A stretch of 64,000 nt of DNA, taken from NCBI GenBank assembly GCA_965261595.1, contig CBDHDG010000006.1, forward strand, positions 1,184,001-1,248,000, in the 5' to 3' direction. The notes under the pieces are model-generated. The model searched no databases. It saw only the letters and a program-made list of their open reading frames with translations, and was not told the origin of the DNA. This DNA comes from a bacterium. GTDB taxonomy: Bacteria > UBA8248 > JACPRG01 > G963555815. A program made the position numbers and the translations under genes. How positions within the stretch are numbered: position 1 is the first letter of the stretch; each line of letters begins with the position of its first letter. Below, piece by piece: positions 2,151 to 63,853 of the stretch.

Positions 2151-2578
2151 GATGTCGCTCCTCCCACCTCAAACCCATTCCTAAAGAGGACGCGGCGGGC
2201 TGGCCGGTCCATGCGCCATCAATCCGAACGGCCGGGGCGCCGGGACCTTGAAAACCTACTTCGCGCGCCACCAGGTCCCGGACATGTCCGGGTCGCCCAT
2301 GCTGAGGAGGTATTTCCCCTGGGCGTCTTCCTGCATATAGGCGACGCCCGACGCCCTTCTGCCGTCGGCGTAGAAGCCGCTCGTCCGATTGCTGTCGAAG
2401 AAGATCCGGCCTTCCCGGATGCTTAACGTCCCCGCGGCCCTCCACCGGGGCGTGATGATCTCGTACGTTCCGTCCTCCCGGATGATCCACTCGGCCCCGA
2501 CGTTCGTTGTGCTCCCCCGCTCTAGGGTTTTGTTGGACACTCGATTGATCCATGATTCATGGAGAAAGGGGTGTCGCG

Positions 2579-2965
2579 ATGAACGAACAAAAGCAAGAGG
2601 GGGCTTTGGCGGAGGGCGCCCGCAGGGCGAACGGAGCCAAGGCCCCAGGGCATCGCAGTGAGCGGGGTCGGTTCTCCTGCCAGCGCAAGCGGGAGGCGGT
2701 CCTGCGTCTTTTGCGGGGCGAGAGCCTGGAGACGCTCTGCCGCGAGTTGGGCACGACAGCGGCTCGGCTTTCCGCCTGGCGCGAGGCGTTCCTTCGCGGG
2801 GGCGAGGCGGCGCTCAAAGCCCGCCCGGCGGATGAGCGGGACGAGGAGAACGCCCGGCTCAAGGCCAAGGTGGGCGAACTCACGATGGAGGGCGAGGTCC
2901 TGCGGGAGAAGATCGACCGCCTGGAGGCCGGCCGCCCTTTAGCCGGCAGGAGGTGGAGGCGATGA
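2579..2965 (+). CDS. IS3-family transposase OrfA (HTH plus leucine zipper)
   Basis: RFS..RKREAVLRLLRGESLE..REL HTH, RLKAKVGELTME coil; ATGA overlap with OrfB. Confidence 0.85.
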   Translation: MNEQKQEGALAEGARRANGAKAPGHRSERGRFSCQRKREAVLRLLRGESLETLCRELGTTAARLSAWREAFLRGGEAALKARPADERDEENARLKAKVGELTMEGEVLREKIDRLEAGRPLAGRRWRR

Positions 2966-3870
2966 GTCAGGCCCGCTTCACCTCCACGGGCAGAGCCTAC
3001 GGCCTGAAGCGGGTGTGCGCCCTTTGGGGCTTGGCGCGCTCCACGGTCTACGCGCAACGGCGGCGAGAGGCGGTCCCCGTTCATGAACGCCCCACGCCCA
3101 ATAAGCGCGGCCCTGTGGGCCCGTGCACCGATGCGGAACTCCTCGGCCACATCCGGCAGGTCCTGGAGGACTCTCCCTTCCATGGCGAGGGCTACCGCAA
3201 GGTGTGGGCGAGGCTGCGCTTCGCGGGCATCCGCACCAGCAAGGAGCGGGTGCGTCGCCTGATGCGGGAGGCGGGGCTTCAGGCCCCTCACCGGGTGGGC
3301 AAACCCCGAGGTCCCAAGGCCCACAACGGGACCATCCGCACCGAGCGGCCCGACCGAATGTGGGGTACGCACATGACGACGACGGTGACCACCGAGGAGG
3401 GGATGGCCTCGGTGTTCGTGGCGGTGGATCACTGCTCGGTGGACTGCGTGGGGATCCATGCGGCCAAGAGCGGCAACCGCTTCGAGGCCCTGGAGCCGAT
3501 CCGGCAGGGGGTCGCCGAGCGCTTCGCCGGCTTGGAGGCGGACGTCGCCGAGGGGCTTAAAGTTCGTCACGACCACGGCCCCGCCTATCTGTCCGATGAC
3601 TTTCAGCGGGAGATCGCCTACCTGGGCATGACCAGTTCGCCCAGCTTCGTGCGGGCGCCCGAGGGAAATGGCTACTGTGAGTGGTTTATCCGCATCTTGA
3701 AGGAGAATCTCCTGTGGGTGCGCTCTTTCGCCACCGTAGAGGAACTGCGGTGGGCGCTGCTTGAGTTCAAAAACCTGTACAACCATCATTGGATTCTCGA
3801 GGGCTACGGCTACCGAACGCCGGCCCAGGCAAGGCAGGAAAAACTCGCTCAAGTTGCGGAGGCCGCATGA
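2962..3870 (+). CDS. IS3-family transposase OrfB (rve integrase core); first catalytic Asp replaced by His
   Basis: GYRKVWARL, WGTHMT (WGTDMT in copy 2), RHDHG, GNGYCE..IRILKE, YN..W. Confidence 0.85.
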   Translation: MSQARFTSTGRAYGLKRVCALWGLARSTVYAQRRREAVPVHERPTPNKRGPVGPCTDAELLGHIRQVLEDSPFHGEGYRKVWARLRFAGIRTSKERVRRLMREAGLQAPHRVGKPRGPKAHNGTIRTERPDRMWGTHMTTTVTTEEGMASVFVAVDHCSVDCVGIHAAKSGNRFEALEPIRQGVAERFAGLEADVAEGLKVRHDHGPAYLSDDFQREIAYLGMTSSPSFVRAPEGNGYCEWFIRILKENLLWVRSFATVEELRWALLEFKNLYNHHWILEGYGYRTPAQARQEKLAQVAEAA

Positions 3871-4419
3871 GGTCGAATACCCTCACCCGAGTGTCCAATA
3901 ACCCAGGGGCGGTCCAGTGCCGTACTGCGCCCGCTGATAAGAAAGACTCCCGTCCCACCGCCCGGCGATGGAGCGGATGTCCTGAATGGGCATGGCGGAC
4001 ATCGTCGCGCCGCAACCCGCCGCGCCAAGTCCGGCCGCAATCAATACCGAGATCGCCATCCAGGTTCGGGCGATATCGCGCATCCTTCGAGTCATGGGAG
4101 GCCCCCCCTCTCAAACCGGTTTTGAACTCAGGCGGCCATCGTACAGCCGTTTCGCCCGTGTATCCATCCAAACAAGACGCGAGGCCGGATATTCCGCCCC
4201 TCCCCCCCCTCCAGGTCTCCATCGGAGGAAGCACGGACCCCGCGGCGCTCCGGAGCATCCACGGCCGGACGCGCCGGGATTCGGAGAATTTCAGCCCGCG
4301 TCACCTTCGCCATCCGGTTTCTGTATAATCCAGGAGTTTTGTTTTCCTGAACACACCGAAAAGACAAGCGCCCAATCGCGCGAAGGAATGCGCGCTCAAA
4401 TCGCGGGAGGACATCAGGC

Positions 4420-7357: not shown

Positions 7358-7445
7358 ACGCCCTAAGCCGCCAAGAGGTTCCCCCGCTCTAGGGTTTTGT
7401 TGGACACTCGATTGATCCATGATTCATGGAGAAAGGGGTGTCGCG

Positions 7446-7832
7446 ATGAACGAACAAAAGCAAGAGGGGGCTTTGGCGGAGGGCGCCCGCAGGGCGAACG
7501 GAGCCAAGGCCCCAGGGCATCGCAGTGAGCGGGGTCGGTTCTCCTGCCAGCGCAAGCGGGAGGCGGTCCTGCGTCTTTTGCGGGGCGAGAGCCTGGAGAC
7601 GCTCTGCCGCGAGTTGGGCACGACAGCGGCTCGGCTTTCCGCCTGGCGCGAGGCGTTCCTTCGCGCGGGCGAGGCGGCGCTCAAAGCCCGCCCGGCGGAT
7701 GAGCGGGACGAGGAGAACGCCCGGCTCAAGGCCAAGGTGGGCGAACTCACGATGGAGGGCGAGGTCCTGCGGGAGAAGATCGACCGCCTGGAGGCCGGCC
7801 GCCCTTTAGCCGGCAGGAGGTGGAGGCGATGA
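7446..7832 (+). CDS. IS3-family transposase OrfA
   Basis: Near-identical to copy 1 OrfA. Confidence 0.85.
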   Translation: MNEQKQEGALAEGARRANGAKAPGHRSERGRFSCQRKREAVLRLLRGESLETLCRELGTTAARLSAWREAFLRAGEAALKARPADERDEENARLKAKVGELTMEGEVLREKIDRLEAGRPLAGRRWRR

Positions 7833-8737
7833 GTCAGGCCCGCTTCACCTCCACGGGCAGAGCCTACGGCCTGAAGCGGGTGTGCGCCCTTTGGGGCTTG
7901 GCGCGCTCCACGGTCTACGCGCAACGGCGGCGAGAGGCGGTCCCCGTTCATGAACGCCCCACGCCCAATAAGCACGGCCCTGTGGGCCCGTGCACCGATG
8001 CGGAACTCCTCGGCCACATCCGGCAGGTCCTGGAGGACTCTCCCTTCCATGGCGAGGGCTACCGCAAGGTGTGGGCGAGGCTGCGCTTCGCGGGCATCCG
8101 CACCAGCAAGGAGCGGGTGCGTCGCCTGATGCGGGAGGCGGGGCTTCAGGCCCCCCACCGGGTGGGCAAACCCCGAGGTCCCAAGGCCCACAACGGGACC
8201 ATCCGCACCGAGCGGCCCGACCGAATGTGGGGCACGGACATGACGACGACGGTGACCACCGAGGAGGGGGTGGCCTCGGTGTTCGTGGCGGTGGATCACT
8301 GCTCGGTGGACTGCGTGGGGATCCATGCGGCCAAGAGCGGCAACCGCTTCGAGGCCCTGGAGCCGATCCGGCAGGGGGTCGCCGAGCGCTTCGCCGGCTT
8401 GGAGGCGGACGTCGCCGAGGGGCTTAAAGTTCGTCACGACCACGGCCCCGCCTATCTGTCCGATGACTTTCAGCGGGAGATCACCTACCTGGGCATGACC
8501 AGTTCGCCCAGCTTCGTGCGGGCGCCCGAGGGAAATGGCTACTGTGAGTGGTTTATCCGCATCTTGAAGGAGAATCTCCTGTGGGTGCGCTCTTTCGCCA
8601 CCGTAGAGGAACTGCGGTGGGCGCTGCTTGAGTTCAAGAACCTGTACAACCATCATTGGATTCTCGAGGGCTACGGCTACCGAACGCCGGCCCAGGCAAG
8701 GCAGGAAAAACTCGCTCAAGTTGCGGAGGCCGCATGA
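7829..8737 (+). CDS. IS3-family transposase OrfB, DDE intact
   Basis: WGTDMT, RHDHG, GNGYCE motifs. Confidence 0.87.
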   Translation: MSQARFTSTGRAYGLKRVCALWGLARSTVYAQRRREAVPVHERPTPNKHGPVGPCTDAELLGHIRQVLEDSPFHGEGYRKVWARLRFAGIRTSKERVRRLMREAGLQAPHRVGKPRGPKAHNGTIRTERPDRMWGTDMTTTVTTEEGVASVFVAVDHCSVDCVGIHAAKSGNRFEALEPIRQGVAERFAGLEADVAEGLKVRHDHGPAYLSDDFQREITYLGMTSSPSFVRAPEGNGYCEWFIRILKENLLWVRSFATVEELRWALLEFKNLYNHHWILEGYGYRTPAQARQEKLAQVAEAA

Positions 8738-8783
8738 GGTCGAATACCCTCACCCGAGTGTCCAATAACCCAGGGGCGGTCCA

Positions 8784-9728
8784 GGGCCTTTTGGGCGGTC
8801 GGCCAACCGGCCGGGTCAGAAGGCATTCGATGTCCCTGTACAAGATGGCGTTGGCCGGAAGCCGAATCGCATAGGAGTAGCCCTCCGCCTCAAGGTATCG
8901 GTACACCTCCGGCTTGGCAAATGCCGCGTCGCCTCGAAAAAACCGACAGACCTTCGCATCCCGGTAGCGAGCTACCACCGGCTCCAATACAGACCACCAG
9001 TCATCAGCGCTGTGGACCTTGCCGTTGCGCAACAGCGCCCGCTCCAGATCGCCAAACTGGTTGAAGCAAAACAGTGGGTGATAGCAGGTGCAGCCGAAGT
9101 GGCCGTTGTAGGAAGAGCCTTCCTGCTCACCGTGGGTCGGGCTGACCGAACTGTCCATGTCCAGGATCAGCTTGCGAATCGGCTTGCGTTTGCGGACACG
9201 ATCCACCAACACACCGGGCAGACCGCTCAGCGCCTTGAGGGGTTAAGGGGCCGGGTGAGGGTCTGCGTCTCGAATCGGCTCATCTGGCTGGTGGAGGCAG
9301 CGGTGTGATACTTCGCTCGCCCCCCAACCACCTGACGCATGGCGGGATCGACACAGAGCCGCTCGGCATCATTGGTGTCTTTATATCCTGCCAGGCGGCT
9401 GTAGACCGACTGGCGCACCAAAGCGGTGAGGCTGTGCCGGGTGTTCCCGCCCGTCCGTGAATCGGACAGAAACCCCTCGGCCGCCTTCGTCAGCCCCAAC
9501 ACCTCATCCAGTTCACGATAGGCAAGCAAACCGGCGTCACTCGTAACCTTTGCTCCGTGAAACTCCAGCCTGAGCCGACCGTCGAATTGGAGCCTCAACG
9601 GCCTCTTTTTCGCTTCACCCATCGGGTCCCCTCGCAAGATGATGGCAGGGAGAGGACAACACCTTGATTTTACACGAGAAAACGGCCTTCGGGGCGTTAA
9701 AAATTATCATCCATATGGGAAATGCGGG
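8784..9728 (-). mobile_element. IS1380-family element remnant: frameshifted transposase, 3' end removed at IS3 copy 2
   Basis: [60 protein letters not shown]; frameshift in the G/C run near 9240; terminus-like CCCGCATTTCCCATATG near 9728. Confidence 0.85.
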
Positions 9729-22846: not shown

Positions 22847-24413
<1,567 letters not shown>

Positions 24414-24582: not shown

Positions 24583-24935
24583 GGAGCAACGTTAAACACC
24601 AAAGATCGGGTCAACCCTCCGGCTAAGTGAAGAAGAATATACCTCCGAGCGGGCGATTGCGCCACAATATTTTACGGGGGAGCGCCGGATTTTCAGAATC
24701 CTCCCGATCCATCTCTTCGGGCCGCGCTCGGGACGGCGACCCGCCCGATTGCAGGCGTGGCCATTCAACTCCGGGCCGGGCAGGATGGCCGGCCTACCGG
24801 ACGGTGTAAATCCGGTGTTTTCAAAACAGGCAGAGCGGGCGTTTGGATCGTTTCACCCCTTGCCCGCCTCCCCCGCAAATCATCCTATGCTATGCTCCCG
24901 ATGAACCCGAAAGAACCTCACGGCGGGAGCGAATC

Positions 24936-25766
24936 ATGCTTTTCCAAAAGGCGTTGCGCCGCCTGACCCCGGACCAGCGGAGGGCGTTCAGGGCCTGGCA
25001 AACCAGGGCCCGCGCCCGCCGGGGAGCGGGCGGCCCGCCGGAAGACGGCCGCAAGGTTGTTACCAACCTCTCTGCCGAAGATCCGTTGGGACGTGACGGC
25101 GATCCGGAAGAAGAGGTGTTCCGCCGGTTCCTCGTCCGGTTGAGCTTGACACGGACAAGGGCCAACTTAAAAAAGAGCTACGAGAAGGCGTGCGCATCTT
25201 TCACCCTTGAAGGTCCCGAGGTCTCCGGGAGAACCTCCGGCTTGGTCAGCCGTGTCATCCCGGCGGACGTTTTCCTCCGAGAACTCGGAATCGCCGCCGG
25301 CCGGCCCGCCGCCGCCTCATCCCTGAACAAGCCCGCGGTTGAGGTGGAGCGCTTTCTGACGCGCTGGAGGAGACGAAGGGCCCGTGTTCTTCGCGACCTG
25401 GAAAAGGTCAGGCTCGGAAGACGCGATAAGAAGGCGGTTTTCCTGGTTTTCGACATTTCCGACGCCGACCGCTCCGATCCCGCAACCCTCAACCGAAGGA
25501 TTGGAAAAGACCCGCCGCCGGACCCAGATACCATATTATTGGAGATGGAAATCCCCGTTGCCGCTCTCGGGCCTAAAAGGTATCCTACGGTCTGTGACGC
25601 GGGCTGGTCGGGATATTTCAAGCCGTCGGCCAGAGAGGCCGATTTCGGCCGGACGCTTGATCTGAACCAACGTCCTCCCGGGCCGGGATTGCCCGAGATC
25701 GTGGCCGAAAATTCGAATGCGAATTGCGTGAGAGATTTTAGGCGCATACCAAGCGGTACGCCATGA
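24936..25766 (+). CDS. Hypothetical protein, candidate ADP-ribosyltransferase/NADase-like effector
   Basis: RBS GGGAG and upstream TGcTATGCT extended -10; C-terminal YPTVCDAGW..YFKP...GRTLDL...GLPEIV; function inferred only. Confidence 0.6.
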   Translation: MLFQKALRRLTPDQRRAFRAWQTRARARRGAGGPPEDGRKVVTNLSAEDPLGRDGDPEEEVFRRFLVRLSLTRTRANLKKSYEKACASFTLEGPEVSGRTSGLVSRVIPADVFLRELGIAAGRPAAASSLNKPAVEVERFLTRWRRRRARVLRDLEKVRLGRRDKKAVFLVFDISDADRSDPATLNRRIGKDPPPDPDTILLEMEIPVAALGPKRYPTVCDAGWSGYFKPSAREADFGRTLDLNQRPPGPGLPEIVAENSNANCVRDFRRIPSGTP

Positions 25767-26695
25767 AACGAGCCACCGCCGTCTGGCGGCCGAAGAACAA
25801 CAGAGACGGGACGCTCAACCTGGACTCGCTGGGAGACGCCTCAGCCGCTGACATCCGACGCTGGATGAAGGCGCGTCTATCGGGCGACGACCTTTACTTC
25901 CCCGAGCGCCCCGACGATCTTCCGGCGCCCGAGCGCCTCTTCATCTACATCTGGGCCAACGCCGAAGGCCGCGCGCAGCGGCTTGTCGAGCGGGGCGCGG
26001 TCTCCCTCCTGAAAGAGATCTTGAAGAAGGACCGCACGCCCGGCCCGGCCGAGACGGCCTACAATCAGGCCATCCTTTTGCTTCTGGCCCACATCCGGCC
26101 CATCGAGGCCCGGGACTTGCTCGAACCCGTCGTCCGATCGGATGAATTCCGGAAAGAGCGTTTTACGGCATCCGGTCTGGATCGTTTGCTCGTCGGGGCC
26201 TGGGCGGCGCAGGGGCAACGGGCGGACGAGGGCCTCGCGCGCGGCCTTTTATCCGAGAAACCCTACGCCCTCGACGCCTTCTGGGTTTTCGCGGAACGGG
26301 GGCCCGAATCGGCCCTCCGCGCCCTGCCCGCGCTCCTGAAACATTTCCGGGACGACCCGGAGGACTACGCCCTCTCGGAGCTCCTCGGGGATTGGGTGGA
26401 GCTCCTTCAGGGGCCAAAGCGTCCGGGCGTTCAGGTCCTGACCTCTCACTTGAAGGACGCGCACGCCTGGGTCCGGGAGATCGTCGCGGCCTCCCTCGAC
26501 ACTGTGGGCATCGAGGTTCCCGGCATCCGCTCCCGGAAAGCGGCCTCACGGGAAAGCAGGCTGATCGGGGAGAAACTCGTGACGGCCTATAACGGCAACG
26601 CCGCAACGCCGGCCATACCTCCCCCCGCCCCCGCCGCCGGACGGCCGTCCACCCCGAGCGCCTGGCACGCTCCCTATCATCCTTCGCCGGCTTGA
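25763..26695 (+). CDS. Hypothetical all-alpha (HEAT-like) protein
   Basis: ATGA overlap with the previous gene; Leu/Ala-rich amphipathic helices; Pro-rich tail. Confidence 0.65.
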   Translation: MKRATAVWRPKNNRDGTLNLDSLGDASAADIRRWMKARLSGDDLYFPERPDDLPAPERLFIYIWANAEGRAQRLVERGAVSLLKEILKKDRTPGPAETAYNQAILLLLAHIRPIEARDLLEPVVRSDEFRKERFTASGLDRLLVGAWAAQGQRADEGLARGLLSEKPYALDAFWVFAERGPESALRALPALLKHFRDDPEDYALSELLGDWVELLQGPKRPGVQVLTSHLKDAHAWVREIVAASLDTVGIEVPGIRSRKAASRESRLIGEKLVTAYNGNAATPAIPPPAPAAGRPSTPSAWHAPYHPSPA

Positions 26696-28137
26696 GACCC
26701 TCCTTGTCCGCCCCCCCGCCCCCCCAGACAACGCACTTCATCACATTCTACTCGTTCAAAGGCGGCGTGGGCCGGACGATGGCGCTCTTGAACGCGGCGC
26801 ACTATCTGGCCGCGGCGGGCCTGGACGTCCTGATGATCGACGCCGACCTGGAGGCCCCGGGGCTGACGCTGGCGCACAAGCGCGGCCGCAGGAAACCGGC
26901 CCAAGGGTTCATCGCGCTCTACGAGGAGTGCCGGGGTTTCATCGAGAGCGGCGCCGAACCGGACGATGCCCCCCACAAGCTCAAAGGATATCTTCACTCC
27001 TTCACCGTGAATACGCCGCCCCTGCCGGGGGTCGAGCGGCCCGGACGCCTCGCCCTCCTGCCGGCCCACCCGTCGGACACCTCGCCGGACGCCTATCTCC
27101 GCCAGCTCTCCGAGCTGTCCATCCGGGAGGTCGTCGGAAAAGGCATTGCCGTGTACGTGGCCGAAGTCATCCGGGCGCGCGTCCGGGAGGAGGGGTTCGA
27201 CTACGCCCTCATCGATTCCCGGACGGGGTGGAGCGAGGCGGCCGGCTTCTGCGTCCTGGGGCTGGCGGACGCCCTGGCCGTCGTCTCGGGCTTGAACGAG
27301 CAGAACCTCCTCGGGACGAAGGACTTTCTGGAGTTCGTGGCGGGCCGGGAGGGCGAGGCGCCGAAACCCGTCCTGCGGATACTCTCTCCGGTCCCGACGG
27401 CGGAGGAGGATCTCAAAGAGAAACGGTTCAGGCGGGCGCGGGAGCTACTCGGCGGAGAGGCCGCCGTCCAGATCCCGTACCACCCCCGGATCGCCCTCAT
27501 CGAAGAGCCTTTCGTCGTCACCCAGCCGGACCACCACGTGACCGAGCAGTACCGAAAGGCCGCCCGGGCGGTCCTGGCCCTCGTCGGCGACGACCCGGAA
27601 ACGCATCTGCGCGAGGCCACGCGACTCGTCTCGGAGGACAAGATCGAAGAATCGTTGAGCCGCCTGCGCCGGGCCTGCCCCTTTGCGAAGAACGAGGTGA
27701 TCCAGGTTCTCCGTTTAGTCATAACCCAGACGATCCTGGCGAGGGGAGACGTTCCACCGTGGGGCGACGACGCCTTCCTTCTCCTCACTCGCCTGGACCC
27801 CCAAGACGACATCGCATTCAACAACTGGGGAAACCACCTCACCCGCTTAGCTGAAATGGTCTGGAAAGACAAAAGGAAAACCGCCGAAAAATATTTCCGG
27901 GACGCGGAGAAGCGCCTTCGCGAGGCAGTGAGCCTTGCGCCCGAAAAAGAGGCTTACCGGAAGAATCTCGTAACGATGCTCAAACTGTGGGCGGATAAAC
28001 TGGAGGAATCCGGAGACACCCGGGCGGCGGAGAAAAAGCGCGAAGAGGCGGAGGGAGTTTCCTCGACCCCCGCGACCAACAGGAAAAAGAAGACACCGAA
28101 GAAACGTCCGGCCAAACCACGGACGGTCAAAAAGTAA
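26692..28137 (+). CDS. ParA/MinD-like P-loop ATPase (KGGVGR variant) with C-terminal TPR repeats
   Basis: TFYSFKGGVGRT, IDADLEAPG, IDSRTG, LNEQNL.G; TPR-like AFNNWGNHL; TTGA overlap. Confidence 0.85.
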   Translation: MRPSLSAPPPPQTTHFITFYSFKGGVGRTMALLNAAHYLAAAGLDVLMIDADLEAPGLTLAHKRGRRKPAQGFIALYEECRGFIESGAEPDDAPHKLKGYLHSFTVNTPPLPGVERPGRLALLPAHPSDTSPDAYLRQLSELSIREVVGKGIAVYVAEVIRARVREEGFDYALIDSRTGWSEAAGFCVLGLADALAVVSGLNEQNLLGTKDFLEFVAGREGEAPKPVLRILSPVPTAEEDLKEKRFRRARELLGGEAAVQIPYHPRIALIEEPFVVTQPDHHVTEQYRKAARAVLALVGDDPETHLREATRLVSEDKIEESLSRLRRACPFAKNEVIQVLRLVITQTILARGDVPPWGDDAFLLLTRLDPQDDIAFNNWGNHLTRLAEMVWKDKRKTAEKYFRDAEKRLREAVSLAPEKEAYRKNLVTMLKLWADKLEESGDTRAAEKKREEAEGVSSTPATNRKKKTPKKRPAKPRTVKK

Positions 28138-43454: not shown

Positions 43455-44309
43455 TTATAAAGGTTTTGACACCAATTGAGTGAGATGTTGTACCACCAGG
43501 GGAAAGAGATCCTGGTGTCGGTGATTGTAACGGAATTCCATCTCCTTCAGGTAGAGGGGGAACCGCTCTTTGGACACCCCATGATGTTTGATGAGCCTCT
43601 CCTTGGCGTAGGCCCAAAAGCCTTCCAGGCCGTTGATGTGCACTTTGCCCCGACTGAAGCGCCGATCATGATCCACCCGCAAGTGGCGATAGCCGCAGAA
43701 CATCAGGGCGTCATAGACCCGGTAGCGGTCGGTGTAGACCACGCTGCCCCGACGGACCAACTTCACGGTGGAGGCCAAAAGGGTCTGGGCCTTGACGTTG
43801 CCGACCGCCTCCACCTTCACCCGGCCGCCCCGCTCCAATATGCCGAAAACAGGGACTTTACCCGCTGCGCCTCGGCCTCTCTTGCCCTTGCGCTTGCCCC
43901 CGAAGTAGGCCTCGTCCGCCTCCACCTCCCCTCGAAGAAGCTCCTGTCCCCCCGGCGTGCCGGCCACAAGACTGCGCCTGAGCGTCGTCACGGCCCGCAG
44001 CGCTGTCGGATAGCTCACGGCGAGTTGCTGGGCCATCTTGCGGGCCGAGACCTCCAGCTCAAAGAGCTTCACCACCCAAAGCCACTGCCGGGCCGAGAGG
44101 CGAAGTTGGCCCAGCCAGCGGCCCGTGAACGGCCCGAAGGTGTACCGACACCCAGCGCAGCGAAAGCGCCCCCGCGTGCCCAAAACGTAGCGTTTTCGAC
44201 CCTCACAACGAGGGCAGATTTTACGCCCGTTTTTCTGACACGCCATGAGCAGATGGCGTCTCGCTGTAGCTTCCGATTTTACAAGGACTTCAAAGCTCTT
44301 CAGGTCCAC
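43455..44309 (-). CDS. IS1595-family transposase
   Basis: Zn ribbon CPRC..C..C, EADEAYFGG, YTD, HINGLEGFW, YLKEMEFRYN. Confidence 0.92.
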   Translation of the reverse strand: MDLKSFEVLVKSEATARRHLLMACQKNGRKICPRCEGRKRYVLGTRGRFRCAGCRYTFGPFTGRWLGQLRLSARQWLWVVKLFELEVSARKMAQQLAVSYPTALRAVTTLRRSLVAGTPGGQELLRGEVEADEAYFGGKRKGKRGRGAAGKVPVFGILERGGRVKVEAVGNVKAQTLLASTVKLVRRGSVVYTDRYRVYDALMFCGYRHLRVDHDRRFSRGKVHINGLEGFWAYAKERLIKHHGVSKERFPLYLKEMEFRYNHRHQDLFPLVVQHLTQLVSKPL

Positions 44310-45364: not shown

Positions 45365-47212
45365 TTAAGAAGCCTTGGCGCAACGAAAACCCAGGTGGAA
45401 GTTCCTGTAGTCCCGGCCGGCCCTGTTCCGGAAGGCAGTACGAAACCACGAGGGATTGTTGGCGCTCCACGGGCCGCCGCGAACCACGCGCCCCCTGCCG
45501 GACGCAGGACCCTCCGGGTTCCGGTTCGGGGCATTCCGGTAATAACCCTTCCCGTGCCAGTCCGATACCCACTCATATACGTTACCCGACATGTCCACTG
45601 CCCCATACGGGCTCCGGTGCGTGTTGTAATCCCGGTCCACCGGGTGTGTCTTGCCTCCGCTGTTCTTGTCCCAGATGACCTTCGAGCCGTCTCAAGCGTT
45701 CCCCCAGGGGTACTTCCGCCCATCCACGCCACGCGCCGCCTTCTCCCATTGCGCCTCCGTAGGAAGGTGCTTGCCCACGGACTTACAGTAATCCCGTGCC
45801 TGGAACCAAGTCACGCCAACCACCGGCTGCCGGGCGCCGTTGAATTTTGAGCCGTAATCTCTCTTCGGCTTTCCGAACCTCCGAAACCGGGCGTTCGTCA
45901 CCGGGTACTTGTCCATGTAAAACGCGTCCAGATACACACGGCGCCGGGGCCTCTCGTCGGAAGAGCCGTCGTTGCTCCCCCTAATGAATGAACCGGCAGG
46001 AACCAGGATCATCGTTTCCAGCCCGCTGCCGATCCGGTGCGGAATGCCGGGGCCAACGGCGACGCGGGGGCGGTCGGACTCGCGGGGTGACGGGCGGGGA
46101 CGGGGACCCGCCCCTACATCTTTTTTCAAGGCCGCGAGACGCCTTTTCTCTTCTTCGATTCGCCTGCGCTCCGCCTCCAGTCGCTTTCGCTCGGCATCAA
46201 TTCAGGCCTTCTCCGCCGCGAGGCGCTCGCGCTCCAAACCGGCCTTCTCGACTTCGAGCTTCCTGCGCTCCTCCGCCAGCCGGGCGCGCTCCTTCACCAG
46301 GTCAAATGCCGGCTTCTCCGTCGGGAGGAGGAAAACAAACTGCCCGTCCCCCGAGAGGTTCCCGAACTGGGGATACTGCTGCCTGCCCGATTCGGCGTAC
46401 GCCCGGTCGCGGACGTACTCGCCCAGATGCTCCAGAGACAGCCAGCCCCATCCCCTCCGGTCAGCGGAACCCTGAAGGCCCTTCAAGAGGACCCGGGTGA
46501 ACAGACCGTTCCCCTCCCGTTCCTGGGCGACCTCGCCCGCGCGGCCGGCGGTGATCACCTGGACGGCGGGACGGGATGTCAGGTCGGTCACGAGCTCGGG
46601 GTTCAGGAGTTTCTTGGTCCGGAAAATCGCGTAGCCCGAGTAGCAGGCGTCCACGGCGAACAGGACATGCTGCGCCCTCATCCGCTTTGCGATAACGGTG
46701 AGCTGGCTCATGGAGATCGCCGTCGAAAAGAGGTTCTTGGGATCGGCGTCGTAGGGGATGAGATAGCCTTCTTTCTCTTCGTCCTTGCCGTGGCCCGAGA
46801 AGAAGACGAACACGCGGTCCCCCGGCGAGACGCGCCGCCGTATCTCATCGCCCAGGAGACGCTCGATGTTCCGCTTGGTGGCCTGCCGGTCGAACAGCGT
46901 GAGGATCTGGCTCTTCGGAAACCCCAGGCGGGGAAGGGCGTCTCGGAGGTCCTCCGCGTCTTTGCGGGCGTAACGCAGCGTGGGGATGCTGGGGTGCTGG
47001 TAGCGGTTGACGCCGATGACGACGGCCCAGGAGTTCGAGTAGAGCCGCTTGCCCTTGTAAACGGGAGCGGGTTGGACGGTGATGGATTTGGACGTCTGGG
47101 CGAACCCGGCCGAAGCAACCAGGAAAACCCCTGGAATCAAAAGAACCAGTAGAATGAAAAGAATCGCCGGAATAAAAAAACCAAGCCCCGCCCGAACGCC
47201 TTCATGCCCCAC
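45365..47212 (-). pseudogene. Caspase-like (peptidase C14) + coiled coil + FGE-sulfatase (SUMF1) domain protein with two in-frame TGA codons
   Basis: FSGHG and DACYSG dyad; LPTEAQWEKAARG, DMSGNVYEW, RGG.W, GFRCA; the three ORF pieces share one frame, with stops at 46202-46204 and 45692-45694. Confidence 0.85.
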
Positions 47213-47459: not shown

Positions 47460-47542
47460 ATGCGAGTCGCCTTTCCTCCATCCAACCGTCACCGCGCTTC
47501 AAGGAAGGGCGGAGTCGGGCGAACCGCACCCAGGCCAAAATC

Positions 47543-59955: not shown

Positions 59956-60860
59956 GGTGATGTACCGTTTTGTGTGTAGAAAGTGTTTTCGGGCAAAAAG
60001 AGAGGGTGTACTCTTCCTGGGAGCAAGAAACCCATTTTGGAGGAGCACACCCAATGCAACCGAAGTTGCTTTTTGGGGATAAGGATTTGGGCCGGGCATT
60101 TCAAGAGCTGAATGAGACGTGGGAGGTGGAGTTGCCCATCGAGGCGAGCCTGAAAGGGTTTTTGGAGGGCCTGATGGCCGAGGAGCGGGCCGTCTACCTG
60201 GCGGCCGGGTTCCGGGAGCGCACGCCCAAGCGGCGCGACTGGGCCAACGGCCACTACGTCCGGGACCTGGGGACCGAGGGGGGGCTGATCCGCGCCCTGC
60301 GTGTGCCCCGGGTTCGCGGCGGCGGCTTTCAGAGCCGGGCGTTCGCGCTACCGGCGCCGCCGGGCGGTGGTGGACCGCACGCTTCGCGATTGCTTCCTGG
60401 CCGGGGTGTCCACCCGCCGGGTGGGGGCGTGCGTGAAGGGGTTGTTGGGTGAAGCGGTGAGCGCCTCCACCGTCTCGCGGGTGTGCACGGCGCTCAGCCG
60501 AGACGTTGCGGCGTTCCACGACCGCCCTTTGAGCGACCACTACCGTTGTGTGTTCCTGGATGGCCTGGCTTTCAAGGTGCGCGGGGCGTCGAGAAGCCGG
60601 CGCAAGGTCCTTTTGTGCGCGATGGGCGTCACACTCGCGGGCCGGCGGGAGATCATCGACTTCCGTCTGGCCGACTCGGAGAGCGAGGCCACATGGACGA
60701 AGTTCCTCGACGACCTCTACCACCGGGGGCTTTTGGGTCACTCCCTTCGCCTCATCATCACCGACGGCAACCCGGGGCTGTTGGCGGCGCTGGAGGTGGT
60801 CTACCCCTTCACGCCCCATCAGCGGTGCTGGTTTCACAAGATGGAAAACGTGGTTAAAAT
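59956..60860 (+). mobile_element. IS256-family element remnant (frameshifted, 3'-truncated transposase from 60054)
   Basis: NGHY.R.L.T..G.I..LRVPR.R, GVSTRRV, VFLDG, ITDG.PGL, QRC.FHK.EN; 2-bp slip near 60345; ends after MENV. Confidence 0.85.
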
Positions 60861-61067
60861 ATCTCACCTCGCCAATGGTGCGACCGAGAACGCTGTGCTG
60901 AGATAAAGTGCTGTAAACATTGAATTTATTTTTCATTATCCCGTCTCTTGCCCCTTGCATTCCCGCCACGCTTGTGCTCAAATACGCACCGATTTGATGC
61001 AGCGTGTGTTCTATTTGATTACGGAATTGCATACCGAATCACCATAGAACAAAGGCAAGGAGCGACC

Positions 61068-61852
61068 ATGCCCAGAAGGAGCGAGCTCAGGATCACCAAA
61101 CGCACCGTGGATGCACTCACCGTCGATGCCACGGATGGCGTCTTCTGGGACCGGGACCTGGCGGGCTTCGGGGTGCGGGTCCATGCCACGGGTCGCAAGG
61201 TCTACGTAGTGCAGTCCCGGGGGCCGGCCGGACCGAAGCGAGTGACCCTCGGACGGCATGGGGACATGTCGACCGAGGAGGCGAGGAAGCGGGCGGCCGT
61301 GGTCATCGACCGCATCAAGCGGGGGGAGGACCCCGTGCCCGCGCCGCCCGAGCCGGAGCTCACGTTGACTGTCCGAACGGTTCCTGCGCACCCATGTCAA
61401 AGCCGAGCACCGTTGCAACGTACCGGAGCGTGCTCGACAAGCACATTCTTCCCACCCTGGGCGCGATGTCAATCAACGAGGTAGGACGAAGAGAGATTTC
61501 CGCGCTGCATCACCGGCTTCGTGACACGCCTGCAATGGCCAACCGGACGGTCAAGGTTCTGTCGAGAATGTTCTCGTTGGCGGAAGCCTGGGAAAGACTG
61601 CCGCCCGGCCGGAATCCGTGCCGGTCGGTGCGCCGCTACAAGGAGAGGTCGTGCGAGCGGTTTCTGACGCCGGAGGAGTTCCGGCGGCTGGGCCGTGTGT
61701 TGAGGGACGCGGAAACGGACGGCTCGGTGTGGCCGCCGGTGATTGCGGCGCTCCGGCTGCTGCTGCTGACCGGATGCCGGAAGAGCGAGATCCTGACGTT
61801 GCGCTGGGAATTTATGGATCGCTTTTTTCCACGCGATGCGGCGGTTGCATAA
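61068..61852 (+). pseudogene. Tyrosine recombinase/integrase remnant (arm-binding domain, frameshifted, truncated)
   Basis: WDRDLAGFGVRV..TGRK, LLLLTGCRKSEILTLRW; lacks HxxR and the catalytic Tyr. Confidence 0.85.
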
Positions 61853-61862
61853 CATATTGATA
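61850..61862. promoter_or_regulatory. IHF-consensus site
   Basis: TAACATATTGATA fits YAANNNNTTGATW in an AT-rich patch. Confidence 0.4.
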
Positions 61863-62566
61863 TTATATGTAGATATCTGTTTCTCCATGCTTCCTGACTG
61901 ACGGCTTCCTGCAAAGTTCAACACTATTTCAACACGGGGATCGGGTAGTACCGAGGCGCGCTCCTGACGCCGTGTGCCGCCGCCGATCCGCCGTTTCCGC
62001 CGATTCGAGACCATCGGCCGCGCGAATCGTAGCCGTTCGGACTCCGGCCCGGAGCCGCCCCGAACCCGGAACCCCCCCGCCGGCGAGGGCCGCAATGATG
62101 GCGTTGACCAACGCCCTCGCGTTGCCGGTGCCCGTCCGTGGCCGCGAACCAATGCCGCGGGCGATCCCGTTCCAGGCGGTTCATCTCCATTCCGGAACGA
62201 TACCGTTCTCCCGGAGGAACTCTTCCGCCAACTCCGCAATCTGCTCTTCCCGGGAGGCGCAGAAGGCATGAACCGCACCCTCGTCGCGGACGTCACGCCG
62301 TTCGTGATGGCAATCGCGATGTGTGCGGCGGCGTTGGCAGCTTGGCGCGGAATCGCTCAGACATCAAGCAGATTCCGGGCGAGGTTCGCGGCATCTGCGG
62401 ACGCATCAAGAAACACAACAGTTTCGAGTGCCATCAACCAGGAACGGGCTGCAACCGGGTCTCCTACCCTTGCTTCCGCGACGATTCAGTCTTGAAATTC
62501 GCACCAATTTTGTGCAGTATAGAGCAGACTCATCGACGGCAATGGCCGATAGTTGGAGCAAATCTA

Positions 62567-63853
62567 ATGCTGTACTTGTCACGCGTACAACTGAGCAACG
62601 TCCGATGCTTTGACGCGCTAGATCTTACACTTAGCCGTCCGGATACTGAACCACCGGGGTGGAACCTCATTTTAGGTGATAACGCAACTGGTAAATCGAC
62701 ACTTCTTCGAAGTATCGCAATAGGTCTGTGTGATGAGGCAAGCGCAGCCGGTTTGCTGAAGGAATCGGACGAAGGGTACATCCGGCGAAGGGAAACCAAG
62801 GCGGCTATTGTGATTTCGTTGCACGATCCAAACGCGCCAGGCAAGAAATTTCGTATCAAGACGGAAGTGACCCGTGAAGAGAAAAGACACGGTATCTTTG
62901 CCGATAAAGTACGACAGAGGACCTATCCTTCAGGTAAGGAGTTTCCTTGGGAGACGTTGTTTGTCTCTGCGTACGGCGCTGGGAGAGGGGTGACGGGCAC
63001 GGGCGATATTTCCTCCTATTCCGCAATCGACGCTGTTTACAACATGTTCAATTACAGCGAAGGGCTTCAGAATCCTGAACTGACCATTCGGCGGCTAATG
63101 GAACATACTGCCGGCAACCAGTTGACGCAGCGTCAGATCTTCCAAGTCTTGCAGACCGCTATAGGAACTAAGGAGATCAAGCTTACCAGCAGTGGCATTC
63201 GAGTGTCCGGTCCATGGGGTGAGGGAATGCCCTTAAGGGATCTTGCTGACGGGTACAGATCCGCTTTTTTGTGGTTGACCGATCTAATTGGGTGGGCTCT
63301 AGCCTTTGATCCTAGTCGAAAAAGCACTGAGGGGATACGCGGAATCGTGTTGGTCGATGAAATCGAGCAACACCTGCACGCCCGATGGCAGCGGACAGCA
63401 ATAGACGATCTCCGAAAGCTCTTTCCTAATGTTCAGTTCATTGCTAGCACGCACTCGCCTCTTGTGGCATCTAGCGTTGGTCCACATTTGGCGAGAAATG
63501 TAACTGACAACCTATTTGTACTTGAACCTCATGAAACTGAGGGCGTGAAGGTTTCGGAACACGAATTCATGCGAGGTTGGAAGATGGACCAAGTGCTGGC
63601 TTCCCGTGCTTTCAAATACCAGGTCCAAGAGGCTTCTTCTACCGAGGAAATGTTGCGGAAGGTTTCTCAGATTGGTGACGTGGATGAACGTACTGAGGAG
63701 GAGAAGAAGCTGTTTGAAGAAATCAAAAATAAACTGAAGCATGCCTTTCTCACCGGAACTACGCCTATCGAACGCATCGCTGAAATTGAGGCGGACAAAG
63801 AGTTGATGGAACGGCTCGCTAAACTCAAAGAGCGGAACTCCGGGGAGCAATGA
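62567..63853 (+). CDS. ABC/AAA_21-type ATPase, Septu PtuA-like
   Basis: NVRCF, GDNATGKST, LADGY, LVDEIEQHLH..WQ, QFIASTHSP; low GC. Confidence 0.85.
   Translation: MLYLSRVQLSNVRCFDALDLTLSRPDTEPPGWNLILGDNATGKSTLLRSIAIGLCDEASAAGLLKESDEGYIRRRETKAAIVISLHDPNAPGKKFRIKTEVTREEKRHGIFADKVRQRTYPSGKEFPWETLFVSAYGAGRGVTGTGDISSYSAIDAVYNMFNYSEGLQNPELTIRRLMEHTAGNQLTQRQIFQVLQTAIGTKEIKLTSSGIRVSGPWGEGMPLRDLADGYRSAFLWLTDLIGWALAFDPSRKSTEGIRGIVLVDEIEQHLHARWQRTAIDDLRKLFPNVQFIASTHSPLVASSVGPHLARNVTDNLFVLEPHETEGVKVSEHEFMRGWKMDQVLASRAFKYQVQEASSTEEMLRKVSQIGDVDERTEEEKKLFEEIKNKLKHAFLTGTTPIERIAEIEADKELMERLAKLKERNSGEQ

Follow-up and report, generated by a model that had tools for sequence, protein, structure and literature searches.

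The window analysed here is a 64,000 nt stretch of contig CBDHDG010000006.1 (positions 1,184,001 to 1,248,000 of the forward strand; assembly GCA_965261595.1) from a bacterium of the GTDB lineage UBA8248. On its plus strand lies a three-gene operon (genes 1, 2 and 3, hereafter the trio), the last gene of which encodes a ParA-like ATPase with a variant Walker A motif. The trio is probably a self-contained ternary conflict module of the toxin-antitoxin-ParA (TA-ParA) kind, consisting of a toxin, an antitoxin and a ParA-repeat switch; the putative toxin probably uses NAD and has a weak likeness to the ADP-ribosyltransferases (ARTs).

Architecture of the three-gene operon

A preliminary description of the window, made from the DNA letters alone, had reported three co-oriented open reading frames (ORFs) joined by 4 bp overlaps; all three coordinates and both overlaps were confirmed (Table 1). 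The overlap that couples genes 1 and 2 is the ATGA at 25763-25766, and genes 2 and 3 are coupled by the TTGA at 26692-26695. An alternative in-frame TTG at 24843 is an unlikely start for gene 1, because the homologues P0124 and P0125 begin at the MLFQKA/MLFDKA position. The start of gene 2 at ATGA is supported, because its first 34 residues align with a conserved L-x-x-L…W-L-x-x-A-L element of distant relatives.

By the evidence of sequence conservation, all three ORFs are genuine genes. Profiles built exclusively from the corresponding neighbours in other genomes, with the window left out, gave gene 1 a score of 72.6 bits (E 2e-21) and gene 2 one of 28.9 bits (E 5e-8, Z=1000), and every cross-family score was noise. 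The operon had also been credited with its own extended -10 element and ribosome-binding site. A sequence resembling the latter, GGGAG, is in place, but the -10 element is discernible only by eye: a consensus promoter scan upstream of the trio gave no plus-strand site, its sole site being on the minus strand at 24696-24669. The possible trio promoter falls within a 520 nt divergent region common to the trio and a ribosomal RNA (rRNA) operon.

Table 1. Features of the trio (positions in the window; aa, amino acids; the term ConB2 is introduced in the text)
Feature	Position	Strand	Remarks
Possible promoter	24860..24896	+	TTGCCC 24860-24865 and extended -10-like TGcTATGCT 24888-24896; by eye, unproven
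Shine-Dalgarno-like GGGAG	24925..24929	+	6 nt 5' of the gene 1 ATG
Gene 1, putative toxin	24936..25766	+	276 aa; ATG start 24936, stop 25764-25766
Gene 2, putative cognate antitoxin/immunity partner	25763..26695	+	310 aa; helical; ATGA overlap with gene 1
Gene 3, ConB2/KGGVGR ParA-like ATPase with helical repeat region and basic tail	26692..28137	+	481 aa; TTG start
KGGVGR ATPase domain of gene 3	26734..27333	+	Residues 15-214; NCBIfam NF047398, PADLOC PDC-M28B
Helical region of gene 3, single 47-aa TOM20/TPR-like unit, putative sensor	27592..28071	+	NWG at residue 378, about nt 27823
Lys/Arg/Pro-rich C-terminal tail of gene 3	28075..28134	+	…RKKKTPKKRPAKPRTVKK; kept in close relatives

A KGGVGR ATPase with a short repeat region

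Gene 3 contains the motifs FYSFKGGVGRTM, IDADLEAPGL, IDSRTGW and GLNEQNLLGT. Its ATPase domain can be read as a Walker A SFKGGVGRT, a sensor-1 DAD followed by LEAPG, a Walker B YALIDSRTG and an NEQN, and the Walker A variant KGGVGRT and the DLEAPG, DSRTG and NEQN motifs named in the preliminary description were thus all found. KGGVGRT corresponds to residues 23-29 and, like the other motifs of the domain, is invariant across 40 aligned relatives. At 133.8 bits the protein exceeded the cut-off (90 bits) of the NCBIfam model NF047398, 'KGGVGR-motif variant AAA ATPase', but ParA, MinD and Mrp models gave only 17-23 bits against cut-offs of 180-450, and ParA-partition, MinD, ApbC/Mrp, BcsQ and VirC1 models 12-30 bits against cut-offs of 108-800, which puts gene 3 outside the ordinary Soj/MinD/Mrp proteins.

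Within Pfam, only the N-terminal P-loop stretch of CbiA, VirC1 and AAA_31 matched gene 3. The PADLOC candidate PDC-M28B (PDLC04559) matched the ATPase domain at 2.1e-24 over profile positions 126-306 of 438, and a profile search against PDB sequences returned nothing at 1e-3. Among the candidates scored, 177 homologues of gene 3 were found at E<=1e-3, most of them 550-840 aa long with Pfam TPR matches; the closest named ones belong to Nitrospinota and Tectomicrobia assemblies. Classical ParA/Soj, MinD and Mrp/NBP35 proteins share with gene 3 the KGG signature lysine of the deviant Walker A motif, a DxD sensor, a Walker B motif and the N of a degenerate NKxD motif. Gene 3 differs from them in the exchange of the GK[ST] lysine for arginine and in its fused repeat region, a putative sensor.

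The replacement of that lysine by arginine (KGGxGR[ST]) is, in the available text of a recent computational preprint, the hallmark of a ParA clade named ConB2, which also has a PG motif after the sensor-1 DxD; Ser at the first Walker A position is given there as a PriB2 trait (bioRxiv 10.64898/2026.10.19.760177). Set against that textual definition, gene 3 has the Walker A Arg, the PG (in IDADLEAPG) and the Ser (in YSFKGG).

The TPR tail that had been ascribed to gene 3 is a helical repeat region, but one with a single 47-aa unit, whose match to Pfam TOM20_plant (E 0.008) is below the cut-off. The nearest relatives of gene 3 are longer: P0002, 85% identical, has six units, and P0003, 79% identical, has five. 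Compared with these proteins, gene 3 is without four to five copies of the repeat, an in-frame loss between units, and P0001, which is 99% identical to gene 3, has the same short 481-aa form. Relatives in this range of 79-99% identity therefore hold 1, 5 or 6 units. The third-position GC of gene 1 (0.70) and of the gene 3 tail (0.72) is below that of the ATPase domain (0.89) and of 20 housekeeping genes (0.84 +/- 0.03); by this measure the ATPase core looks better adapted to the genome than the putative toxin and sensor parts do.

Conserved neighbourhoods and exchange of the upstream genes

When one genome per species was scanned with an alignment of the gene 3 family, at least 586 pattern matches were obtained, at least 570 of which encode relatives. 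The best 80 of at least 570 loci were classified by six-frame hidden Markov model (HMM) search, a sample whose proportions are not unbiased. Sixteen of the 80 carry a window-type cassette, with a gene-1-like and a gene-2-like ORF in the window's order directly 5' of the ATPase; in one more (L005) this cassette is cut at the contig edge, and in another (L016) only the gene-1-like ORF was found. A second, unrelated pair (~275 aa and ~265 aa) stands at 15 loci, a ~120-aa protein with an MqsA-family zinc-finger/helix-turn-helix antitoxin (TIGR03830, E down to 1e-20) at 31, an MqsA-like protein only at seven, and none of the three cassettes at nine. Another complete two-gene cassette thus takes the position of the window pair at 46 of the 80 loci.

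The cassettes are kept whole. No locus (0/80) mixes them, gene-2-like ORFs occur only with gene-1-like ORFs, and a change of effector family goes with a change of partner family throughout the 62 full-cassette loci; intergenic gaps are mostly -8 to +20 nt. The three-gene synteny that the preliminary description had proposed as a test was recovered: homologues of the trio co-occur in the same order across phyla, the window-type loci being spread over Myxococcota, Lentisphaerota, Verrucomicrobiota, Armatimonadota, Rhodothermota, Pseudomonadota, Actinomycetota and others. In L001 (3e-12), L006, L013 and L018, BLASTP with gene 1 matched an ORF lying two genes 5' of the ATPase, and BLASTP with gene 2 matched the ORF immediately upstream of the ATPase in L013 (7e-4). 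For the closest relatives, adjacency has as its sole basis the equal size of the contigs that carry P0002 and P0124 (1,504,650 bp), and likewise P0003 and P0127 (32,478 bp).

The closest ATPase identity to gene 3 among the scan matches listed was 37% (42% for L001 in the tree), and since the best identity is 37% there is no close relative of the window among the scanned loci listed. In a quick IQ-TREE phylogeny of 77 ATPase rows, with Shimodaira-Hasegawa-like approximate likelihood ratio test (SH-aLRT) support and three ATPases without a motif match left out, all MqsA-type loci group together in a single clade (SH-aLRT 99). The two larger cassettes intermingle, with starred branches that require at least three switches. 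One case is L004, a locus with the second cassette that is nested among the near-identical window-type ATPases of L003, L010 and L011 (end branches 0.06-0.19); on this tree, the upstream pair has been exchanged under a conserved ATPase. These four loci come from Rhodoferax, Verrucomicrobia, Chthoniobacteraceae and Contendobacter assemblies, so that near-identical ATPases are found in different phyla, and the sequences point to recent horizontal transfer with cassette replacement. Gene 3 itself sits on a long branch (1.21) nearest to L001, at a place that is not exactly sure.

The second cassette is found at L004, L012, L015, L020, L023, L024, L031, L038, L039, L043, L053, L054, L059, L070 and L075. 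Its ~275-aa family stands in the toxin position, some 1.7 kb 5' of each ATPase, and is accompanied by three sub-families of partner proteins. Residues G, PFD-G, Y and W are invariant in this family, which bears the motifs SPFDSGGL, DY and RAWTFEVR. The family had no PDB or Pfam match, and hhalign found it unrelated to the gene 1 family (probability 0.15). A profile search against PDB sequences gave no relevant match for the ~120-aa family upstream of MqsA, which may be MqsR-like, to judge by a C-terminal motif pattern.

Among the nine cassette-free loci are L008, L025 and L028 (where the upstream gene encodes 430-535 aa); L055, L058 and L063; and L064 and L073. The nine, some of which have other shared upstream families, may represent further system types.

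Genes 1 and 2 encode a candidate toxin and its putative partner

Gene 1 belongs to no Pfam, NCBIfam or PADLOC family. A word-indexed search found five close relatives, and exhaustive phmmer 34 proteins at E<=1e-3, nearly all of 230-300 aa, four of them at E<=1e-10. An AlphaFold2 model made with a 43-sequence alignment reached a predicted local distance difference test score (pLDDT) of 92.2 and a predicted TM-score (pTM) of 0.89; a 5-sequence alignment had given an unusable pLDDT of 41.7. The modelled protein has an N-terminal domain of four or five helices (about residues 1-92); its C-terminal part is an alpha/beta domain, the strands of which lie at 103-109, 167-171, 201-207, 238-242, 249-258 and 267-271.

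Near-invariant in the family are G93, R106, P217, T218, D221, G238, T240, E254 and V256. Of these, R106 falls within the first strand and E254 within the fifth, and with T218 or T240 these conserved residues give an R-[ST]-E order. The ART catalytic triad is R/H - S/T/Y - E on strands 1, 2 and 5, and the R-[ST]-E order is that of one ART branch. When the model was compared with PDB by Foldseek, 18 of the 48 listed rows were of the ART superfamily, with the highest probabilities (0.03-0.35, against mostly 0.01-0.04 for the others); they included the SPN NAD+ glycohydrolase, Tpt1/KptA, EcPltA, NatT, pierisin-1, DarT1 and MTX. Among the structures in BFVD the top named matches were a phage RNA 2'-phosphotransferase and DarT. 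All of these ART matches are weak, with E 0.048-6 and TM 0.19-0.37 in PDB, and TM <=0.55 in BFVD when normalised to a 98-aa target. Integrase SAM-like clusters of the ESM Atlas, obtained with gene 1 whole and with residues 95-276, scored 0.82-0.88, below a meaningful level, and were rejected. From the model, 'ART-like' is the best lead for gene 1 rather than a statement of membership, and we would put it at roughly an even chance.

The toxins of SPN-IFS, DarT-DarG and NatT-NatR are the best weak structural matches to gene 1 (4kt6, 3pnt, 8baq and 8qnl; E 0.05-6, TM 0.19-0.34), without sequence similarity. In each of these pairs an NAD-using toxin is neutralised by the product of an adjacent partner gene, IFS, the partner of the Streptococcus pyogenes NAD+ glycohydrolase SPN, being a helical immunity factor. 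The pairs are without a third, ParA-like component, unlike the trio.

Gene 2 is likewise outside all Pfam, NCBIfam and PADLOC families, and the word-indexed search found three close relatives. The protein is helical, with a Pro-rich C-terminal tail and conserved W34, L39 and P47, and shows a weak helical-repeat likeness (HEAT_2 at E 0.014; CNOT1/PPR at E 0.06-0.09 with the family profile against PDB sequences). Starting an iterative HMM search from gene 2 and a single close homologue retrieved no sequence in round 0; the link to the family was made in the reverse direction. The preliminary description had called gene 2 an adaptor. A partner role suits the layout of the operon, but because gene 2 strictly co-varies with gene 1, that of a generic adaptor is less probable for it than that of a cognate antitoxin or immunity partner.

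Genomic surroundings

A complete rRNA operon adjoins the trio on its 5' side, on the minus strand, with 16S at 22855-24413 followed by two tRNAs, 23S and 5S to 19025. The trio starts 520 nt from the 16S end on the opposite strand, and is therefore divergently transcribed from the rRNA operon. On the 3' side lie tyrS, an HU/IHF-family gene, a Nudix hydrolase and a PduO-type adenosyltransferase, and ScpA is 7 kb away. The absence of parB, minC and minE nearby held up, as none of the ParB, MinC and MinE families was found at E<=1e-5 in the 49 other window proteins scanned.

The flanks of 14 window-type loci (68 proteins scanned) hold a different set in each genome, mostly housekeeping genes such as purL, aminoacyl-tRNA synthetases, glyoxylate-shunt enzymes and recJ. 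The only hints of mobile or conflict genes were MazE (L006), a DDE transposase with a DruA-like region (L014), and DUF433 with PDDEXK_3 (L022). Proximity to a defence island, which the preliminary description had suggested looking for, gave no signal at the window locus or in these flanks. On this comparison of sequences, conservation is confined to the three genes themselves, as is typical of toxin-antitoxin-like islets and expected of a mobile module.

The window contains several features apart from the trio. A 1.4 kb element is present twice (2513-3917 and 7380-8784, 4867 nt apart, with ~8 differences), and each copy holds a 431-aa minus-strand ORF without a Pfam or NCBIfam family; the element may have duplicated recently, or may be an insertion sequence of an unclassified type. 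An IS1380-family transposase fragment (9230-9637) and an IS1595-family transposase (43458-44309, 1e-47) are both on the minus strand. At 45695-47212, also on the minus strand, a protein of the caspase family (Peptidase_C14; below the cut-off, at 2.3e-27, for NCBIfam 'caspase, EACC1-associated type') adjoins a short ORF with an FGE-sulfatase domain; other predicted conflict systems of bacteria frequently contain these two domains. A second KGGVGRT peptide can be translated at 47505-47525 (plus strand), in a frame that runs for 64 aa from stop to stop and has a minus-strand gene on either side; its codons are not those of gene 3 and the sequence around it does not resemble gene 3, and it was rejected as chance. 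The region 60301-63853, where GC drops to 0.49-0.58, comprises fragments of an IS256-family transposase and of the N-terminal part of a phage integrase (61394-61849), together with a 571-aa ATPase with PtuA-like (7e-33, below the cut-off), AAA_15 and AAA_21 matches, and may be an acquired defence islet.

Comparison with described systems

The ternary TA-ParA systems of the ConB2 clade were described computationally by Li, Burroughs and Aravind on 22 Oct 2026 (bioRxiv 10.64898/2026.10.19.760177). According to the available text, they consist of a toxin, an antitoxin and a ConB2 ParA fused most commonly to TPRs, and have six toxin subtypes: C-N hydrolase, ART, BECR RNase, restriction endonuclease, Pol-beta nucleotidyltransferase and papain-like. 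The antitoxin is modelled there as restraining the toxin until a sensor-ParA switch reorganises the complex. The trio resembles these systems, so far as that text describes them, in its operon of putative toxin, putative antitoxin and ParA, and in its ParA with Walker A Arg and PG; its C-terminal helical region, the putative repeat sensor, has only one 47-aa unit. One TA-ParA subtype combines ART toxins with novel antitoxins; here the comparison is with a textual description, and the ART assignment of the trio is weak.

These parallels bear on the originality of the locus. In the preliminary description the trio was undescribed and matched no defence system that could be named, a view that no longer stands, a match to an already named system having been set there as an outcome that would refute it: the architecture is already described in silico as TA-ParA in the text available, and both the NCBIfam KGGVGR model and the PADLOC candidate PDC-M28B exist already. 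The layout of switch, partner and enzyme-like effector proposed at that stage does fit the comparative data, and the placing of gene 3 in a ParA-like clade apart from Soj/MinD/Mrp is likewise supported. Our neighbourhood analysis independently reproduces the TA-ParA picture, including the MqsA-type subtype. The trio is an example, with unannotated toxin and antitoxin families, of a computationally predicted kind of system, and not an undescribed system.

Other tripartite arrangements are less similar. The APE system (alpha-alpha toroid-ParA-effector), in the same preprint, is also a three-gene ConB2 ParA neighbourhood with an uncharacterised helical protein and an enzymatic effector. As presented in the available text, its helical partner is constant while the effector varies, whereas in the trio type the partner and effector co-vary and the ParA has its own repeat sensor. 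Of PADLOC PDC-M28, itself an untested candidate, only the B model matches gene 3, and this partially. The TAC (SecB-like) systems likewise join a third protein to a type II toxin-antitoxin pair, but their third protein is a SecB chaperone for the antitoxin and that of the trio an NTPase-sensor fusion, a contrast also made in the accessible part of bioRxiv 10.64898/2026.10.19.760177. Literature searches returned only an unrelated lectin review for KGGVGR, no paper for PDC-M28, and no experimental study of a tripartite toxin-antitoxin system with a ParA-like and TPR component.

A model for the trio and its alternatives

The conservation of the trio is far beyond chance, and its reading as a conflict system is supported by the comparative sequence evidence. 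We envisage a module in which the putative toxin encoded by gene 1 probably consumes NAD+ or ADP-ribosylates a target, and is held inactive by the antitoxin or immunity partner that gene 2 is predicted to encode. A signal of invasion or stress would be bound by the repeat region of gene 3, and a nucleotide-dependent change in the ParA domain would then rearrange a toxin-antitoxin complex of which gene 3 is presumed to form part. The freed toxin would arrest or kill the cell, possibly as an anti-phage measure.

Several observations weigh against this reading, in whole or in part. Foldseek with gene 1 against PDB and BFVD gave no match at E<=0.001 (best 0.048, TM 0.23-0.37); a comparison of the gene 1 family with E. 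coli KptA by hhalign yielded a probability of 0.09; none of the 43 gene 1 family members matched a Pfam ART family; and a profile search of the family against PDB sequences produced only VapC and an NTP pyrophosphohydrolase, at E 0.35-0.58. PADLOC scanning of genes 1 and 2 matched no model. The sensor has one unit instead of the five to six of its closest relatives, which could mean decay. MinD/ParA-like domains of conflict systems with the Walker A Lys-to-Arg change were earlier called 'predicted to be inactive' by the group that wrote the preprint, in the part of the paper available (PMC7159879). The trio lies between an rRNA operon and tyrS/HU with genome-typical GC, no defence-island signal was seen, and the flanks of related loci are mostly housekeeping genes. 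The 80 loci were chosen as the top-scoring ones by likeness to gene 3. Finally, the preprint is a computational study, and none of the TA-ParA systems is supported by experiment.

The first group of these points is the case for the most serious alternative, namely that the trio is the same ParA-gated ternary module, but that gene 1 is not an ART and has another or a new fold and chemistry, making it a seventh toxin type. Every structural match of gene 1 is non-significant, and no sequence profile links it to KptA, the Pfam ART families or PDB sequences. Even so, ART proteins of seven families dominate the best weak PDB matches, the named BFVD matches are headed by an RNA 2'-phosphotransferase and DarT, and the conserved R...[ST]...E order fits an ART; we regard a non-ART gene 1 as unlikely. 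An extension in the opposite direction is that gene 1 founds an unnamed family nearest to the nucleic-acid-directed ARTs (Tpt1/KptA, DarT and pierisin), and that a ParA-gated trio ADP-ribosylates DNA or RNA instead of merely using up NAD+, with a sensor retuned by gain and loss of 47-aa units and a cassette that can be exchanged. This combination may be entertained as a speculation, and is itself unlikely.

A further alternative is that the module is a decaying or disarmed remnant, rendered unresponsive by the shrinkage of its sensor to one repeat. The single unit, compared with the five or six of relatives 79-85% identical to gene 3, would suit such a history, as would the low third-position GC of gene 1 and of the gene 3 tail relative to housekeeping genes. 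It is made very unlikely by the three intact frames, by the presence of every family-conserved residue of genes 1 and 3, by a repeat deletion that is in frame and between units, and by P0001, in which the 481-aa form recurs.

An APE-like organisation, with gene 2 as the constant sensor partner of the ParA and gene 1 as a back-up effector, draws on the helical nature of gene 2 and on the resemblance to the APE neighbourhood, with its helical protein and variable effector, as worded in the available text. Over the 80 loci, however, the helical partner is not constant and the other cassettes bring their own partners; gene 3 has its own C-terminal repeat sensor, as in TA-ParA; and the effectors listed for APE in that text (HD, caspase, TIR and KAP-like NTPase) are absent from the trio, so that this organisation seems highly improbable. 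A housekeeping module for the ParA-like positioning or assembly of a cellular cargo would be at home at a chromosomal site of this kind, with its genome-typical GC, and ParA relatives have many housekeeping roles (bioRxiv 10.64898/2026.10.19.760177, in the text available), but it is hardly credible given that the same text separates the Walker A arginine clade from the housekeeping ParAs, that distribution is patchy, with near-identical ATPases across phyla and swapped upstream cassettes, that an MqsA-family antitoxin occurs at 38 of the 80 sister loci, and that conservation of context stops at three genes.

Implications

As a TA-ParA ternary module, the locus would be a compact and intact example of its kind, for which a confident toxin-like model, the candidate catalytic residues R106 and E254 and natural variants in sensor length are at hand. 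With the cassette swaps, it offers material for asking whether a ParA whose Walker A motif carries arginine could serve as an immune switch, and what the chemistry of the effector is. For genome annotation, it brings to light two unnamed families, gene-1-like and gene-2-like, that travel with KGGVGR ATPases across at least nine phyla.

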